A stretch of DNA of 11,078 nucleotides from a virus (taxonomy: Duplodnaviria; Heunggongvirae; Uroviricota; Caudoviricetes). The translations under genes were made by a program, and so were the position numbers. This document shows positions 1 to 8,354 of this stretch, in pieces. Position 1 is the first letter of the stretch. The number at the start of each line of letters is the position of its first letter. The stretch spans positions 1 through 11,078 of IMG/VR virus record IMGVR_UViG_641522623_000003. One strand, 5' to 3'. The notes under the pieces were generated by a model. That model was not told where the DNA came from. It did no database searches and saw only the letters and a list, made by a program, of their open reading frames with translations.

Positions 1-477
1 ATGAAACTCATCAGTAACGATCTGCGCGATGGCGATAAATTGCCGCATCGTCATGTCTTTAACGGCATGGGTTACGATGGCGATAATATTTCACCGCATC
101 TGGCGTGGGATGATGTTCCTGCGGGAACGAAAAGTTTTGTTGTCACCTGCTACGACCCGGATGCGCCAACCGGCTCCGGCTGGTGGCACTGGGTAGTTGT
201 TAACTTACCCGCTGATACCCGCGTATTACCGCAAGGGTTTGGCTCTGGTCTGGTAGCAATGCCAGACGGCGTTTTGCAGACGCGTACCGACTTTGGTAAA
301 ACCGGGTACGATGGCGCAGCACCGCCGAAAGGCGAAACTCATCGCTACATTTTTACCGTTCACGCGCTGGATATAGAACGTATTGATGTCGATGAAGGTG
401 CCAGCGGCGCGATGGTCGGGTTTAACGTTCATTTCCACTCTCTGGCAAGCGCCTCGATTACTGCGATGTTTAGTTAA
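1..477 (+). CDS. ybhB: PEBP/RKIP-family protein YbhB (host gene on the bio side of attB)
   Basis: 158-aa ORF starting at window position 1 and ending TAA 475..477. The translation (…DPDAPTGSGWWHWVVVNLP…HRYIFTVHALD…) is recognised as E. coli YbhB. Recognition is from memory, not a search. Confidence 0.9.
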   Translation: MKLISNDLRDGDKLPHRHVFNGMGYDGDNISPHLAWDDVPAGTKSFVVTCYDPDAPTGSGWWHWVVVNLPADTRVLPQGFGSGLVAMPDGVLQTRTDFGKTGYDGAAPPKGETHRYIFTVHALDIERIDVDEGASGAMVGFNVHFHSLASASITAMFS

Positions 478-865: not shown

Positions 866-1238
866 TTTCATTTATCTCCGCCCGGAAACTTCTTATACAA
901 AGTCGATACGCCAACATCATAGATGATCGCCACCTTCTGGCGAGAAACTCCTGATGCAATTAGTCGTCCAGCCTGCGCTCATTGCTCCGGCGTGAGAGTA
1001 AGACAGTAAACTGTAGAAAAATCTCATTAAACTTAATATAATAATAAGTTACAAAATTATCTTTACTGAATAATAGATATATGAACATTAGTGAACTTAA
1101 AAACTGTATACACTATGAAGTAATAGGTTATAAACGCCCTTTCTCCTGGCGAAAAGCAATTGTTCGCGCAATAAAACACAGAAGATTACGTTATTTATTT
1201 TGGTGGCGCATAGCAAAATATCTGGTAATGACTCCAAC

Positions 1239-1616
1239 TTATTGATAGTGTTTTATGTTCAGATAATGCCCGATGATTTTGTCATGCAGCTCCACCGATT
1301 TTGAGAACGACAGCGACTTCCGTCCCAGCCGTGCCAGGTGCTGCCTCAGATTCAGGTTATGCCGCTCAATGCGCTGAGTGTAACGCTTGCTGATAACGTG
1401 CAGCTTTCCCTTCAGGCGGGATTCATACAGCGGCCAGCCATCCGTCATCCATATCACCACGTCAAAGGGTGACAGCAGGCTCATAAGACGCCCCAGCGTC
1501 GCCATAGTGCGTTCACCGAATACGTGCGCAACAACCGTCTTCCGGAGCCTGTCATACGCGTAAAACAGCCAGCGCTGGCGCGATTTAGCCCCGACGTATC
1601 CCCACTGTTCGTCCAT
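1239..1616 (-). CDS. insB: IS1 insB reading frame (C-terminal catalytic part of InsAB' transposase)
   Basis: 125-aa track [25 protein letters not shown]…HYLNIKHYQ. The insB frame extends upstream to the A6C site. The nominal insB ATG (minus strand 1742..1740) is followed by TAG at codon 11 (1712..1710), where copy B has TGG. Confidence 0.85.
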
Positions 1617-1660
1617 TTCCGCGCAGACGATGACGTCACTGCCCGGCTGTATGCGCGAGG

Positions 1661-1936
1661 TTACCGACTGCGGCCTGAGTTTTTTAAGTGACGTAAAATC
1701 GTGTTGAGGCTAACGCCCATAATGCGTGCAGTTGCCCGGCATCCAACGCCATTCATGGCCATATCAATGATTTTCTGGTGCGTACCGGGTTGAGAAGCGG
1801 TGTAAGTGAACTGCAGTTGCCATGTTTTACGGCAGTGAGAGCAGAGATAGCGCTGATGTCCGGCGGTGCTTTTGCCGTTACGCACCACCCCGTCAGTAGC
1901 TGAACAGGAGGGACAGCTGATAGAAACAGAAGCCAC
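1661..1936 (-). CDS. insA: IS1 InsA (transposition repressor / N-terminal part of InsAB' transposase)
   Basis: 91-aa [42 protein letters not shown]…, the canonical IS1 InsA with its zinc-finger Cys motif. Confidence 0.9.
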
Positions 1937-2024
1937 TGGAGCACCTCAAAAACACCATCATACACTAAATCAGTAAGTTGGCAGCATCACCCGTTTTTCG
2001 TTATGTATAAATAAGGAGCACACC

Positions 2025-4874: not shown

Positions 4875-5096
4875 ATGGCAGACATCATTGATTCAGCATC
4901 AGAAATTGAAGAATTACAGCGCAACACAGCAATAAAAATGCGCCGCCTGAACCACCAGGCTATATCTGCCACTCATTGTTGTGAGTGTGGCGATCCGATA
5001 GATGAACGAAGACGCCTGGCCGTTCAGGGTTGTCGGACTTGTGCAAGTTGCCAGGAGGATCTGGAACTTATCAGTAAACAGAGAGGTTCGAAGTGA
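4875..5096 (+). CDS. TraR/DksA-family C4 zinc-finger protein (lambda Orf73-like)
   Basis: 73-aa ORF with CxxC…(17)…CxxC (CCECGDPIDERRRLAVQGCRTCASC). Size and position between orf61 and ea22 fit the lambda TraR homologue. Confidence 0.8.
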   Translation: MADIIDSASEIEELQRNTAIKMRRLNHQAISATHCCECGDPIDERRRLAVQGCRTCASCQEDLELISKQRGSK

Positions 5097-5506
5097 GCGT
5101 AATTCACTCTCAGGCACTGCGTGAAGCGGCAGAGCAGGCAATGCATGACAACTGGGGATTTGACGCGGACCTTTTCCATGAGCTGGTAACACCATCGATT
5201 GTGCTGACACTGCTGGATGAACGGGAAAGAAACCAGCAGTACATCAAACGCCGCGACCAGGAGAACGAGGATATTGCGCTAACGGTGAGGAAACTGCGTG
5301 TTGAGCTGGAGACAGCAAAAATCAAAACTCAACGAGCAGCGTGAGTAGAAGGTGTTATCTCGGATGGAAGTAAGCGTATTGCTGAACTGGAGGCCTGGGT
5401 TGAATACACAAGAGCTGCATACGTAAGAGCAAAAGACAAGGGAGATTTGATCAGAGTTATTACCCGACAACCAACGGGATTTTACGCTTACGTACCATGT
5501 AATTAG
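5093..5506 (+). pseudogene. ea22-like gene, interrupted by in-frame TGA and shortened
   Basis: GTG start 5093 overlaps the upstream stop. 83 codons (MSVIHSQALREAAEQAMHDNWGFDADLF…) run to TGA 5342..5344. The same frame then stays open for 53 more codons (VEGVISDGSKRIAELEAWVEYTRAAYVRAKDKGDL…) to TAG 5504..5506, with no in-frame start. Confidence 0.45.
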
Positions 5507-5590
5507 GAATCCTTGAAGTGGCAGCCTAACTGCGGATACACTGAAATGGCGATTTGGTAACATGTTTCGCACAAGGGTAGTGACTCCAAC

Positions 5591-6094
5591 TTACTGATAG
5601 TGTTTTATGTTCAGATAATGCCCGATGACCTTGTCATGCAGCTCCACCGATTTTGAGAACGACAGCGACTTCCGTCCCAGCCTTGCCAGATGTTGTCTCA
5701 GATTCAGATTATGTCGCTCAATGCGCTGAGTGTAACGCTTGCTGATAACGTGCAGCTTTCCCTTCAGGCGTGATTCATACAGCGGCCAGCCATCCGTCAT
5801 CCATACCACGACCTCAAAGGCCGACAGCAGGCTCAGAAGACGCTCCAGTGTGGCCAGAGTGCGTTCACCGAAAACGTGCGCCACAACTGTCCTCCGTATC
5901 CTGTCATACGCGTAAAACAGCCAGCGCTGACGTGATTTAGCACCGACGTAGCCCCACTGTTCGTCCATTTCCGCGCAGACGATGACGTCACTGCCCGGCT
6001 GTATGCGCGAGGTTACCGACTGCGGCCTGAGTTTTTTAAATGGCGGAAAATCGTGTTGAGGCCAACGCCCATAATGCGGGCGGTTGCCCGGCAT
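5591..6094 (-). CDS. insB: IS1 InsB (full 167-aa insB frame)
   Basis: 167-aa [19 protein letters not shown]…[10 protein letters not shown]6C frameshift motif present (plus-strand GAGTTTTTTAAA, ~6029..6040). Confidence 0.9.
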
Positions 6095-6288
6095 CCAACG
6101 CCATTCATGGCCATATCAATGATTTTCTGGTGCGTACCGGGTTGAGAAGCGGTGTAAGTGAACTGCAGTTGCCATGTTTTACGGCAGTGAGAGCAGAGAT
6201 AGCGCTGATGTCCGGCAGTGCTTTTGCCGTTACGCACCACCCCGTCAGTAGCTGAACAGGAGGGACAGCTGATAGAAACAGAAGCCAC
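6013..6288 (-). CDS. insA: IS1 InsA
   Basis: 91-aa ORF, 2 aa different from copy A (…[19 protein letters not shown]). Confidence 0.9.
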
Positions 6289-6400
6289 TGGAGCACCTCA
6301 AAAACACCATCATACACTAAATCAGTAAGTTGGCAGCATCACCCGCTTAAAGATAATCAGCCATGATTAAACGCTTTGTAAAAAGTAAAAGGAAATTACA

Positions 6401-7015
6401 ATGAAAAAATCAATACTAATTTTAGGGCTTACGTTAATTGTCTCATCTCAAATACCATCGGCAATGGCAAAAAATGAATCAAGACTTTGGGTTGTTGTTG
6501 ATCGAACGGAAAGACATACCTGCCCTTCAAGTAAATGTGGAGTGGCTGGGAAACTATTTTTCAGGGAAGGCGTAGATTTTCTAGAAAAAAAAGGTGAATG
6601 GGTTCGTATAACTGAGCCATATTCAGCCTCATGTGTGGGAGGGGAAAGCGAATATATTAAAGAAGGTAATAAATCCTGCACAAGAAAAAACGGAATCGTC
6701 AATGGCAAGTTTTCAGAATGGGTTAAACTTAGTGATCTTAGCAGTGAAAGGCCATCAGATCCTGCTGAAAATGCGAGCGGAGATGATACTTTAATCAAAG
6801 GATCTGATGACTACCGTATATACAAAAAAGAGTTTTCTTCGGCAGCTAGGAAGTTAATAAACGAAGGGGTCTGCACGGAAAGCGACTTTAAGGAAATCGG
6901 AGGGTGGATGGCATCAAGCAATAAGGGGAAAAACATCTATTTCACATATTGCGGAGGAATGACGTTGTCGAACAGAATATACCTAGACGTTAAAAGTGGA
7001 AAGACTTTTAGATAA
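6401..7015 (+). CDS. Secreted (Sec signal peptide) Cys-containing hypothetical protein, accessory cargo
   Basis: 204-aa ORF with RBS AAGGA 8 nt upstream. N-terminus MKKSILILGLTLIVSSQIPSAMA↓KNE is a typical signal peptide with AxA cleavage site and no lipobox. Mature part has 6 Cys. The gene is visibly AT-rich versus the flanking lambda genes. No family recognised by eye. Confidence 0.7.
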   Translation: MKKSILILGLTLIVSSQIPSAMAKNESRLWVVVDRTERHTCPSSKCGVAGKLFFREGVDFLEKKGEWVRITEPYSASCVGGESEYIKEGNKSCTRKNGIVNGKFSEWVKLSDLSSERPSDPAENASGDDTLIKGSDDYRIYKKEFSSAARKLINEGVCTESDFKEIGGWMASSNKGKNIYFTYCGGMTLSNRIYLDVKSGKTFR

Positions 7016-7086
7016 TATGATATTACCAATGACAGTATTAATTTAATGCCTCCATAGAATTATCTCTAGGAAGTATGTATAAGAAA

Positions 7087-7120
7087 AGCCCGCACAATGA
7101 GCTGCTGCGGGCTTTGTGTT
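7087..7120 (+). terminator. Rho-independent terminator candidate downstream of secreted-protein gene
   Basis: Stem AGCCCGCA (7087..7094) / TGCGGGCT (7106..7113) with an 11-nt loop, followed by TTGTGTT. Confidence 0.5.
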
Positions 7121-7308
7121 ATTCGCCATATTTTATGAAGCAAATACGACACTATAGATAATTAAGCGTTGCTGGTTGTCGATTCCTCACTCACTCCTGT
7201 TGATGGCTCTCTTCTTGTATGTGCCATTGAAGGGTAATATCGAGTAAAAAGATACCGGAAGTATCCGCGCCGCCATGATTGTCTTTCTCCTAATGCAGGA
7301 AAAGCAGA

Positions 7309-7428
7309 ATGGCTAAATCATCAGCAGAGCGCAAAGTCGATCAGAGAGCCAAGCAAGCATCATCCGGTATGCGTAAGCTGGAGCTTGTACTTGATGCTCA
7401 GGAAATTGAAATGCTGGATCGTAACTGA
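7309..7428 (+). CDS. Small hypothetical ORF (39 aa) whose frame continues past its TGA stop
   Basis: ATG 7309 with AGGAAA 10 nt upstream. Translation MAKSSAERKVDQRAKQASSGMRKLELVLDAQEIEMLDRN, stop TGA 7426..7428. The same frame continues 72 codons to TAA 7645..7647 (ATRRFRHAPYEFGEYIALLSRQDDARVRWRIKSISRKRCGKCGERVPVNSCPCNGDSQCWVTKGWHETKLMI) with no ATG. Confidence 0.35.
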   Translation: MAKSSAERKVDQRAKQASSGMRKLELVLDAQEIEMLDRN

Positions 7429-7675
7429 GCCACGCGCCGCTTCAGGCATGCGCCTTACGAGTTTGGTGAGTACATCGCGTTACTGAGCCGCCAGGATGAT
7501 GCACGTGTGCGCTGGCGTATAAAATCGATCAGCAGAAAACGTTGCGGTAAGTGCGGCGAGAGAGTTCCTGTTAATTCATGCCCGTGTAATGGTGACTCAC
7601 AATGCTGGGTGACCAAAGGCTGGCACGAAACAAAATTAATGATATAAATCTCTGTGACATGTCACGGAGGCGGCA

Positions 7676-8104
7676 ATGAAATTAGACCAGCAATATCTAA
7701 AAGATCTACTTATCGCATTCGAAAAAACTCATGGCCCTGACACGATGCTTAGTGAACTAGAGGATAATGGCTTTAATAGATATGACCAAAATTTTATTTT
7801 CCATATGCGATTATTATGCGACTACGAATTAATAGTCAGGGTTGATGGAAAACCTGGGTTCGGTCATATAATGTCCAACGAGTTAGGGGAAGGTGTTGGA
7901 TATAGTTGGATCGAAGTACCACTGAGGTTGACAGCAAGAGGGCATGATTTTATTGCTGACTTGCGTCAAAAGGAGGTCTGGCAAACTATAAAAACAAACT
8001 TTAAGGATGAGGGAATTAGTACACTAATAAGTGTTTCAAAATCACTAGCAAAAGGCTTTGCAAGGAAAAAGATAAAAGATATTACAGGAATAGATATTGA
8101 ATAA
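7676..8104 (+). CDS. DUF2513-like hypothetical protein (putative winged-helix), accessory cargo at the lambda ea8.5 position
   Basis: 142-aa ORF with strong RBS GGAGG (7666..7670) 5 nt before the ATG. AT-rich codon usage. The motif …RLTARGHDFIADLRQKEVWQTIK… and a basic C-terminal tail resemble my memory of DUF2513 proteins (…LTWxGHEFLDAIRD…VW…). Confidence 0.65.
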   Translation: MKLDQQYLKDLLIAFEKTHGPDTMLSELEDNGFNRYDQNFIFHMRLLCDYELIVRVDGKPGFGHIMSNELGEGVGYSWIEVPLRLTARGHDFIADLRQKEVWQTIKTNFKDEGISTLISVSKSLAKGFARKKIKDITGIDIE

Positions 8105-8186
8105 TTCTTAGCATCAGCAACTACTGCCTTTGGTGGAAATTATATCTGAACTCGCTACGGCGAGTTTTGTTTTATGGAGATGATAA

Positions 8187-8354
8187 ATGCACTTCCGAGT
8201 CACAGGTGAATGGAATGGAGAACCATTCAACAGAGTTATCGAAGCAGAGAACATCAATGACTGCTATGACCACTGGATGATATGGGCGCAGATAGCACAT
8301 GCAGACATAACCAATATTCGAATTGAAGAACTGAAAGAACACCAAGCCGCCTGA
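8187..8354 (+). CDS. Small lambda-like ORF upstream of xis (orf55-like)
   Basis: 55-aa ORF MHFRVTGEWNGEPFNRVIEAENINDCYDHWMIWAQIAHADITNIRIEELKEHQAA with RBS GGAGA 7 nt upstream. Length and position match the small ORF lambda carries between ea8.5 and xis. Confidence 0.55.
   Translation: MHFRVTGEWNGEPFNRVIEAENINDCYDHWMIWAQIAHADITNIRIEELKEHQAA

Follow-up and report, generated by a model that had tools for sequence, protein, structure and literature searches.

A probable mosaic patch in the ea slot of an IS1-cut cryptic lambda-type prophage

The non-lambda DNA lying between an IS1 copy and the orf55-xis-int module of a lambda-type prophage raises the question of whether its genes form one accessory system. 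The window (the whole stretch of 11,078 nucleotides that was analysed) was an IS1-riddled cryptic lambda-type prophage at att-lambda, between ybhB and ybhC, and was 100% identical to E. coli ATCC 8739. The initial annotation had described a block of three genes at this position and considered it possible cargo for superinfection exclusion or anti-phage activity. The interval is probably a mosaic patch of four independently acquired pieces in the variable ea slot of this IS1-cut prophage, and not one system.

Limits, composition and variability of the substituted interval

The alignment with lambda stopped at 5391 (lambda 30094, inside ea22) and homology was back at 8139 (lambda 29333, 3' of ea8.5). 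Therefore, the 3' part of ea22 and the whole of ea8.5 were replaced, in agreement with the initial annotation. The block had been placed from 6344 onwards, directly after IS1 copy B. The limits of this IS1 copy were right (5576..6343), but the substitution begins at 5392 and contains the IS1. In the IS1-free alleles L002 and L003, 5392..5575 runs straight into 6344 onwards. The features of the interval were as follows:

5392..5575, + strand: start of the substitution, downstream of the truncated, frameshifted ea22 (ORF 5093..5344)
5576..6343, - strand: IS1 copy B, 768 bp, with inverted repeats 5575-5598 and 6321-6344
6330..6357, + strand: promoter-like site TTGGCA-16 nt-GATAAT, a consensus match only (10/12 positions)
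6401..7015, + strand: intact gene for a 204-aa protein, predicted to be exported (WP_000748284.1, phrog_8310)
7085..7120, + strand: GC-rich terminator-like hairpin followed by a U-rich tract (-18.8 kcal/mol, z -2.3)
7166..7271, + strand: dead umuD/humD-like (peptidase S24) fragment, N-terminal half absent, in-frame TAA at 7235-7237
7309..7647, + strand: pseudogene of a 112-aa cysteine-rich protein (p112; phrog_536), Cys40 TGT changed to TGA at 7426-7428
7676..8104, + strand: intact DUF2513 gene, 142 aa (WP_000762730.1, phrog_585)
8148..8167, + strand: terminator-like hairpin after the DUF2513 gene, just inside the resumed lambda homology (8139)

The three ORFs described earlier (6401..7015, 7309..7647 with its in-frame TGA, and 7676..8104) were recovered at these coordinates. 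The block ORFs all lie on the + strand, the same as cIII-kil-gam-bet-exo and xis-int. The ea22 gene was annotated as frameshifted and partial in RefSeq. At IS1 copy B, 9 bp of the IS1-free allele (CTGTTACTA) were replaced and no target-site duplication was present, and a repeat search returned nothing beyond the IS1 ends. The pL/immunity region was deleted, and IS1 copy A abuts cIII. In a Rfam scan of the whole window, only the known cIII thermoregulator was found.

The AT-richness that had been noted for the block applied to part of it. The GC content was 0.376 in 6344-7165 and 0.379 in 7648-8138, but 0.48-0.50 in 7166-7647, while the lambda-like arms had values of 0.494 and 0.445. For the SH3b-like gene at 6401..7015, the GC content was 0.39, compared with 0.45-0.49 in its flanks.

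The position itself proved to be a variable accessory site, as had been suggested. The genes upstream of orf55 differ among phages: ea8.5 in lambda, a 232-aa gene in ev099, a 279-aa gene in HK140 and DUF551/ASCH genes in 933W. Among 5426 complete E. coli genomes, about 130 carried the block; it was also present in one isolated phage (Chlobot). The lambda-type orf55-xis junction was present in 1712 E. coli genomes, only ~131 of which had the block. No block protein matched PF20735 (Lambda_ea8_5), on which lambda Ea8.5 itself scored 164 bits. No characterised gene was recognised among them: an NCBIfam scan of all block proteins returned nothing, and the searches for PDB relatives and in the literature were likewise without a match.

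The interval could also be regarded as decaying cryptic-prophage junk that is functionless for host and phage. The prophage is heavily degraded: target duplications are lacking at both IS1 copies, ea22 is truncated, only a fragment of umuD is left, p112 carries a nonsense mutation, and pL is absent. However, the isolated phage Chlobot has the same block with p112 intact, and the ORFs of the SH3b-like protein and DUF2513 were intact in nearly all copies and conserved across genera. Junk throughout the interval is thus improbable.

The gene of the exported SH3b-like protein

In the 204-aa protein, a predicted signal peptide is followed by an SH3b-like domain, into which a Cys-rich stretch is inserted, and by a conserved C-terminal domain of 80 aa. 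We infer the signal peptide from the segment MKKSILILGLTLIVSSQIPSAMA/K, the low pLDDT of residues 1-25 and the lipoboxes of distant homologues. SH3_3 (PF08239) scored 16.1 bits on the protein, below the gathering score of 27; a precomputed PF08239 match was present in several members of the family, and the SH3b beta-barrel fold was recognised in the protein. Fold searches of BFVD and the PDB yielded only lysin SH3b domains and no exclusion protein. Furthermore, 18 columns were invariant in the family, including three of the six conserved Cys, and the remaining three Cys were at least 90% conserved. The dN/dS of the gene was 0.10-0.18, on few sites.

A Pfam scan of the 80-aa domain returned nothing. 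The domain always lay at the C-terminus, preceded by a signal peptide only, by SH3b, or by ankyrin repeats plus SH3b, and it defines a secreted family of 531 clusters at 50% identity on phages and islands. Searches of PDB sequences with profiles of the 204-aa family and of the C-terminal domain hit nothing but de novo designed TIM barrels, for which no single stretch passed; these were regarded as spurious repeat matches.

Homologues of equal length and 60-69% identity were found in Pseudomonas, with an integrase as neighbour, and in a prophage of Aeromonas, between a Q-like antiterminator and the lysis genes. In other viral contigs, the gene was located before the terminase, between an endolysin and a tail gene, or antisense within a head-gene cluster. 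Among phage records, it was present in Chlobot only. In Pseudomonas, Aeromonas and other phages, it occurred without the other block genes.

Phage morons encode a number of envelope proteins, such as lambda bor and lom, the exclusion lipoproteins T5 Llp and phi80 Cor, and the periplasmic T4 Sp. Two marks of a moron, varied positions in unrelated phages and a deviating base composition, were both found for the SH3b-like gene. As for expression signals, the terminator-like hairpin was present. The promoter-like site at 6330..6357 has its -35 in the IS1 end and its -10 in the flank, ~45 nt upstream of the ATG at 6401; promoter-like sites in the region were as numerous as expected from shuffles, so this IS1-flank hybrid site was not above chance. 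In the IS1-free allele, no sigma-70-like site was found on the + strand upstream of the gene. Judged from these marks, the gene behaves as a moron; its autonomous expression, which the definition of a moron includes, is putative.

These data bear on whether the block serves as an anti-phage or superinfection-exclusion cassette, placed at a cargo hot spot near int and working at the envelope through its exported protein. In favour of this, the slot varies between phages and is filled with non-lambda DNA that is partly of low GC. The 204-aa protein is predicted to be exported with a domain of the cell-wall-binding type, its gene is under purifying selection and carried on many mobile elements, and the envelope is also where known exclusion proteins such as T4 Sp, T5 Llp and phi80 Cor act. 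However, defence profiles, which had been suggested as a check, gave no family for the 204-aa, repaired 112-aa, DUF2513 and orf55 proteins (PADLOC-DB 2.0, E up to 1), and only weak coiled-coil noise was obtained with PADLOC on the neighbours of the Pseudomonas and Aeromonas homologues. The absence of any exclusion protein from the fold matches and of a detectable promoter from the IS1-free allele also speaks against the cassette, as do the inactivation of one of its three genes and the separate occurrence of the genes elsewhere. A cassette of this kind is unlikely. The only form in which the idea survives is the possibility of superinfection exclusion by the predicted exported 204-aa protein.

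A bolder proposal is that the 204-aa protein is the founder of a widely mobile periplasmic family. Its SH3b domain would sit on the wall, and the 80-aa disulfide-containing domain would block the wall-degrading or DNA-injection machinery of an incoming phage, or the peptidoglycan hydrolase of a competitor. We hold this to be a long shot. If true, this would be a novel way for prophages to protect the envelope, and the gene would have spread as a moron across Enterobacterales, Pseudomonas and Aeromonas.

The umuD remnant, the 112-aa pseudogene and the DUF2513 gene

A fourth element of the block, absent from the initial annotation, was observed at 7166..7271. This fragment matched phrog_811 and phrog_10470 and showed 87-91% nucleotide identity to the umuD-like genes of P1-like phages; in RefSeq, it is a partial 'DNA repair protein'. 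Instead of a complete UmuD/S24 domain with N-terminal cleavage site and catalytic residues, it has no start codon and covers only positions 54-88 of the 116 of PF00717, to which the match was weak.

The middle gene had been described as a pair of small ORFs joined across a TGA. The frame 7309..7647 was open apart from that single TGA, the ORF 7507..7647 being the listed part of it, and it matched the phrog_536 profile over its full length (E 7.8e-48). The nucleotide sequence of 7251/7309-7640 was ~90% identical to phages of the phiV10/TL-2011b type. RefSeq remarks on an 'internal stop'. Codon 40 is TGA here, whereas Chlobot, L018/L019 and L027 have TGT, and Cys40 was invariant in 9 diverse homologues of p112. 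In the Cys-rich C-terminal part, copies of the TGA lineage also have Tyr in place of the invariant Cys99. In further copies, independent lesions were found (C79*, 5' frameshifts and a deletion), while p112 was intact in phage Chlobot and other prophages. The dN/dS against close relatives was ~1, on few sites. A profile of the 112-aa family found no relative in the PDB or Pfam, where the PHROG label 'transcriptional regulator' was without support. Homology of p112 to lambda Ea8.5, which has a homeodomain/zinc-finger fold, was considered and rejected (BLASTP E 10, no alignment).

The TGA might instead be recoded, by selenocysteine insertion or read-through, with the 112-aa protein still being made. 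It aligns with an invariant Cys, and a second allele has a TGA at another Cys codon, C79. However, the 50 nt downstream of the TGA folded no better than shuffles (z -0.13), unlike a SECIS-type element, and no Rfam element was found at the TGA. The downstream sequence was essentially identical in the TGT alleles. Moreover, copies of the TGA lineage gather frameshifts and the Cys99 change, and the dN/dS of p112 also speaks against a maintained protein. Recoding was rejected as extremely improbable.

The DUF2513-like assignment of 7676..8104 was borne out, with a PF10711 score of 42.9 bits against a gathering score of 29.6 (E 6.8e-11, profile 1-100 of 100). The domain was also found in all 113 DUF2513 homologues but two short ones (P0193, P0195). 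The AF2 model (pLDDT 92.8) consists of a winged helix-turn-helix and C-terminal helices. With Foldseek, MarR/PadR-type regulators were matched weakly (E ~0.1, TM 0.35-0.46), and a sequence search of solved structures found no relation. DUF2513 was found in the early operons of many prophages. In the literature searched for DUF2513, PF10711, the WP accessions, the PHROG ids and Chlobot, the sole result was an incidental mention of DUF2513.

The p112 gene was directly upstream of DUF2513 in 38/40 E. coli-type viral loci and in 13/40 divergent loci. The spacer was kept at 28-29 nt in E. coli, Cronobacter and other viral contigs, across which the identities of the p112 and DUF2513 proteins were 50-69% and 61-74%, respectively. 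Such constancy, despite ~35% divergence of the proteins, may point to a functional pair and is not explained by the mosaic model. In addition, the 112-aa gene, DUF2513 and orf55 form a recurrent module of the ea region, 95% identical in a prophage with a P22-type integrase, and the unit humD'-112aa-DUF2513 occurred without the SH3b-like gene in L018, L036 and L061-63. The view that these are ordinary ea-region genes, which would have told against the initial annotation, nearly applies to this recurrent module.

The pair might represent a two-component regulatory or toxin-antitoxin-like module that is half-disabled here. Adjacency and a spacer conserved despite the divergence of the proteins favour it, as does the small size of both proteins, one being cysteine-rich and the other of a predicted DNA-binding type. 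However, DUF2513 stood without p112 in 24/40 of the divergent loci and also in prophages of Serratia and Citrobacter, and p112 occurred without DUF2513, with ASCH or NinX genes downstream instead, in roughly 535 E. coli genomes. The obligate co-occurrence of a type II toxin-antitoxin system was thus not seen. Furthermore, p112 was inactivated in at least 22 of the 38 E. coli-type loci with DUF2513 intact; therefore, an essential antitoxin-toxin relation is disfavoured. Such a module is unlikely.

Origin of the patch and comparison with known systems

The claim of a coherent three-gene block had to be given up: the middle 'ORF pair' is a nonsense pseudogene, a dead umuD fragment is added, and the genes are separate elsewhere. 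A mosaic patch remains our preferred reading. Its signs are the GC steps of the interval (0.38 to 0.48-0.50 to 0.38) and the matching of its pieces to different phage groups. The slot would be the non-essential, highly variable 'ea' position at the int-proximal end of the pL operon. Piece 1 would be a moron-type gene for a Sec-exported, disulfide-stabilised periplasmic protein (localisation and fold are predicted), whose SH3b-like domain would most likely attach it to peptidoglycan or another envelope glycan and present the 80-aa C-terminal domain. Piece 2 is probably a functionless umuD/humD remnant. Piece 3 is taken as a 112-aa Cys-rich early gene that is common among epsilon15/phiV10-like and P22/lambda-like phages and has been killed here by the change of Cys40 to a stop. 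Piece 4, DUF2513, frequently but not obligatorily 28 nt downstream of p112, is most likely a small nucleic-acid-binding accessory factor, predicted to be made early in the lytic cycle from the N-antiterminated pL transcript. Because this prophage has lost the pL/immunity region, any expression of the block would come from local promoters, possibly the IS1-flank hybrid before the SH3b-like gene. The presence of the whole block together in about 130 E. coli genomes may simply be due to the clonal spread of one phage lineage, but the combination could also have been selected for.

The outcome is mostly a tidier annotation. What the initial annotation had ranked as its best candidate for an undescribed function is accounted for by ordinary lambdoid mosaicism (a promiscuous moron, two dead remnants and a common early-region DUF gene). 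Two modest leads emerge. The 80-aa C-terminal domain, which is without a Pfam model, defines a sizeable secreted family, and temperate phages of Enterobacterales repeatedly carry the 112-aa/DUF2513 pair at its conserved spacing of 28 nt.

The accessory genes of the lambda exo-xis region are non-essential; their products are small, are expressed early and modulate the development of the phage (PMC7093339, PMC8614690). The block shares its slot and orientation, in the distal pL operon from exo to xis, with lambda ea22, ea8.5, orf61, orf63, orf60a and orf73, but the sequences are unrelated, and a regulatory role for the block would be by analogy. Compared with the envelope morons, the SH3b-like gene is likewise a single gene for an exported protein with deviating GC, a terminator-like hairpin and varied insertion sites, whereas no similarity in sequence or fold to bor, lom, Llp, Cor or Sp was found. 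Its product resembles the SH3b domains (PF08239) of endolysins, lysostaphin and NlpC/P60 hydrolases, but it is without a catalytic domain and differs from lysin SH3b in its Cys-rich insertion, its fusion to the unannotated 80-aa domain and its own Pfam score below gathering. The p112 gene, inactivated here, belongs at full length to the same family as the phrog_536 genes of phiV10/epsilon15-like and TL-2011b-type phages, in which ASCH or NinX genes, not DUF2513, come next. Finally, although the matches were weak (E ~0.1) and DNA binding and dimerisation are only putative, DUF2513 has its best structural neighbours in the winged-helix factors of the MarR/PadR/HxlR type, with which it shares the H-H-H-beta-wing topology followed by helices.

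Prophage setting and extent of the substitution

Between ybhB and ybhC, the window carried cIII, kil, gam, bet, exo, orf60a/63/61-like genes, a TraR/orf73-like gene, a truncated ea22, orf55, xis, int and two IS1 copies. The full window was aligned without mismatch to E. coli ATCC 8739 (100% identity over 6300-8200), and the RefSeq annotation of the region is a degraded lambdoid prophage at att-lambda. The features were as follows.

1..477, ybhB, at the start of the window
1224..1991, IS1 copy A, adjoining cIII
5576..6343, IS1 copy B, inside the substituted DNA
6401..7015, + strand, 204-aa ORF matching phrog_8310 over its full length
7166..7271, umuD/humD-like fragment without a start or N-terminal half, with TAA at 7235-7237
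7309..7647, + strand, frame of the 112-aa gene (p112) with a single TGA (7426-7428)
7676..8104, + strand, DUF2513 gene of 142 aa, Pfam match over threshold
9795.., ybhC, at the end of the window

The two ORFs and the TGA-containing frame of the initial annotation were all found, on the strand of the pL-operon genes. The replacement of the 3' part of ea22 and the entire ea8.5 was borne out as well: the lambda alignment ended at 5391 (lambda 30094, within ea22) and restarted at 8139 (lambda 29333, immediately 3' of ea8.5), which places the start of the substituted DNA at 5392 and includes IS1 copy B. The composition was stepped. The proposed AT-richness held for 6344-7165 and 7648-8138 (GC 0.376 and 0.379), but not for 7166-7271 (0.48) and 7309-7647 (0.496); the lambda-like arms had 0.494 and 0.445. 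The three genes described had to be supplemented with a fourth element, the umuD/humD-like fragment.

As IS1 copy A adjoins cIII, the pL, N, immunity, replication and late regions are missing. The IS1 copies had the same orientation and only about 95% mutual identity, target-site duplication was found at neither, and copy B stood in place of 9 bp (CTGTTACTA) of the IS1-free allele. Together with the lost pL, immunity and late regions, this suggests that the cryptic prophage was shaped by IS1-mediated adjacent deletions. Strain BR1220 and the isolated phage Chlobot (PP925838.1) had the flanks of IS1 copy B in direct continuity. Chlobot possessed the entire block at about 98% identity, flanked by a short ea22-like ORF and orf55-xis-int; therefore, the substitution is part of a viable lambda-like phage and no artefact of prophage decay.

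Several further details of the flanks were recorded. The lambda cIII thermoregulator RNA (RF01804, 88.5 bits) was intact at 2012-2070, 21 nt past the end of IS1 copy A. The att-proximal arm beside ybhB (478-1223) held only scraps, with 88% identity to the lambda attP-side region at 564-777 and partial RefSeq pseudogenes for a "nucleocapsid", an HTH protein and a serine-acetyltransferase. ea22 (5093-5344) was cut down to an 83-aa frameshifted N-terminal remnant, a truncation also present in Chlobot and other block carriers. Upstream of orf55, 8139-8143 looks like a recurrent recombination boundary: the similarity of lambda, 434, 933W, HK140 and Stx phages to the window started within a few bases of it, and these phages differed in upstream cargo and integrases. 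For P22-type phages, the common stretch was shorter and lay further inside (query 170-232).

The predicted exported SH3b-like protein

The 204-aa protein matched SH3_3 weakly (16.1 bits, under the cut-off of 27) and had no match in NCBIfam or PADLOC. Its N-terminus, MKKSILILGLTLIVSSQIPSAMA/K, resembles a Sec signal peptide in form, and some distant homologues had a lipobox instead. The AF2 model (mean pLDDT 90.5) was confident outside residues 1-25. Residues ~122-204 formed a C-terminal domain of two helices and three strands with the motif GGW..S...YFTYCGG...NRIYLD, conserved Cys158 and Cys184, and no match in Pfam or PDB. A profile of this domain retrieved 531 representative clusters. The domain was C-terminal throughout: it was the only one after a signal peptide (~95-130 aa), followed SH3b or ankyrin repeats plus SH3b, or stood in tandem.

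Full-length relatives (60-69% identity) occurred in Pseudomonas and Aeromonas. The family alignment had 18 invariant columns and six conserved Cys positions, three invariant and three at least 90% conserved. One relative adjoined the integrase of a small Pseudomonas island, and another lay between a Q-like antiterminator and the lysis genes of an Aeromonas prophage; others preceded the large terminase gene, separated the endolysin gene from a tail gene, or were placed between head genes on the opposite strand. Given these unrelated contexts, its reduced GC, the hairpin plus U tract downstream and a dN/dS of ~0.1-0.2 (few sites), the gene resembles a moron under selection in its behaviour. A search for a promoter of the gene itself in the IS1-free allele was negative. 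In the window, the end of IS1 copy B that faces outward contributes TTGGCA, with GATAAT following after 16 nt in the flank (6330-6357), about 45 nt upstream of the ATG. This site, which the IS1-free allele lacks, is a possible IS-created hybrid promoter; it only matches the consensus, at a level no higher than chance.

The umuD fragment and the p112-DUF2513 pair

The umuD element, labelled by RefSeq as a partial "DNA repair protein", was a fragment in every copy examined, including Chlobot; umuD-like genes from P1-like phages were 87-91% identical to it in nucleotide sequence. It was kept even in loci free of the SH3b gene (L036, L061-63), and we take it for a scar left by past recombination. 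In GenBank, Chlobot (6824-7302, window 7169-7647) is annotated with a "UmuD-like protein" ORF across this scar and a 46-aa "transcriptional regulator", contrary to the uninterrupted 112-aa phrog_536 ORF at 6964-7302.

The frame 7309..7647 matched phrog_536 (E 7.8e-48), with ~90% nucleotide identity to phiV10, TL-2011b and related phages. It had been described as an ORF pair joined across an in-frame TGA, and a recoded gene was considered here as a rival reading. However, intact ORFs with TGT (Cys) at this position were found in Chlobot, a plasmid copy (L027) and a prophage with a P22-type integrase (L018/L019); Cys40 is invariant with C79, C82, C91 and C99 among nine diverse homologues. Moreover, the 50 nt 3' of the TGA folded no better than shuffles, no Rfam family matched there, and other TGA-lineage copies had lost another invariant cysteine (Cys99 to Tyr). 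These results rule out recoding and, judged from sequence comparison, 7309..7647 is a pseudogene in the window. Other alleles had independent lesions (C79*, 5' frameshifts, a deletion joining the 3' half to the umuD scar), and repeated loss of the gene affected at least 22 of the 38 E. coli-type viral loci. This could be due to relaxed selection or selection for loss. In IMG/VR contigs L029-L066 (3634-3972 of each locus), p112 was inactivated in several independent ways beside an intact DUF2513 ORF, and two of the lesions turned the codon of an invariant Cys (C40, C79) into TGA. The PHROG label "transcriptional regulator" was without support when the family profile was compared with PDB and Pfam, and the protein had no sequence relation to lambda Ea8.5.

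In the AF2 model of the DUF2513 protein (pLDDT 92.8), helices 5-16, 25-30 and 38-49 and a beta wing made up a winged helix-turn-helix core, with three more helices after it. The closest solved structures were MarR/PadR/HxlR-type regulators, weakly (E ~0.1), and no sequence-related solved structure was found. Homologues (46-77% identity) were distributed across prophages of Enterobacterales and were without exception in early operons, for example close to int in Serratia, in a nin-like region in Citrobacter and directly before the small terminase in Cronobacter. In the Cronobacter locus, a p112 homologue of 112 aa with 63% identity and Cys where the window has TGA lay 28 nt upstream, a distance identical to that in the window. 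Among 80 viral contigs, p112 immediately preceded DUF2513 in 38 of the 40 E. coli-type loci; for the 40 divergent loci, it did so in 13, was nearby in 3 and absent from 24. In addition, L018, a prophage whose integrase differs, had the p112-DUF2513-orf55 unit at 95% identity. We conclude that the pair is a recurrent module of the ea region, though a facultative one. A toxin-antitoxin relation is opposed by the frequent loss of p112 with DUF2513 intact.

Distribution of the slot and content of the block

At least 80% of 6300-8200 was present in 131 of 5426 complete E. coli genomes, the 204-aa gene segment in 133, p112 with DUF2513 in 142, and at least p112 in 677, mostly with ASCH or NinX genes next. 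The lambda-type orf55-xis junction occurred in 1712 of these genomes and in 44 of 50,697 phage records; one phage record (Chlobot) had the block. Large E. coli plasmids such as pECO-cbb3 (L027, NZ_CP026206.1) also carried the entire block, at eleven places, together with lambda-like flanking genes and IS26/IS5/IS110 elements. Directly upstream of orf55, lambda has ea8.5, ev099 a 232-aa gene, HK140 a 279-aa gene and 933W DUF551/ASCH genes, so the slot is variable, in agreement with the initial annotation.

The interval is a mosaic and not a three-gene system. The best-supported account of its content is a predicted exported SH3b-type protein, a winged-helix accessory protein and two dead remnants. 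The first would be a moron-carried candidate envelope binder and the second an early product from pL in the intact phage; the remnants are the umuD fragment and the p112 of the window. Nothing was found tying the block to the suggested anti-phage defence, and it is quite unlikely that the exported protein acts by envelope-level exclusion. The block is already in RefSeq under "hypothetical", "DUF2513" and pseudogene labels; the C-terminal domain family, which is without annotation, and the conserved p112-DUF2513 pair are small leads. Previous work described the exo-xis region as a set of diverse non-essential genes modulating the lysis-lysogeny decision, and Stx phages without ea8.5 (PMC7093339). 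Accordingly, the exchange of ea8.5 for other small genes is expected variation, and mosaic cargo of this sort is well known from the variable slots of lambdoid phages.
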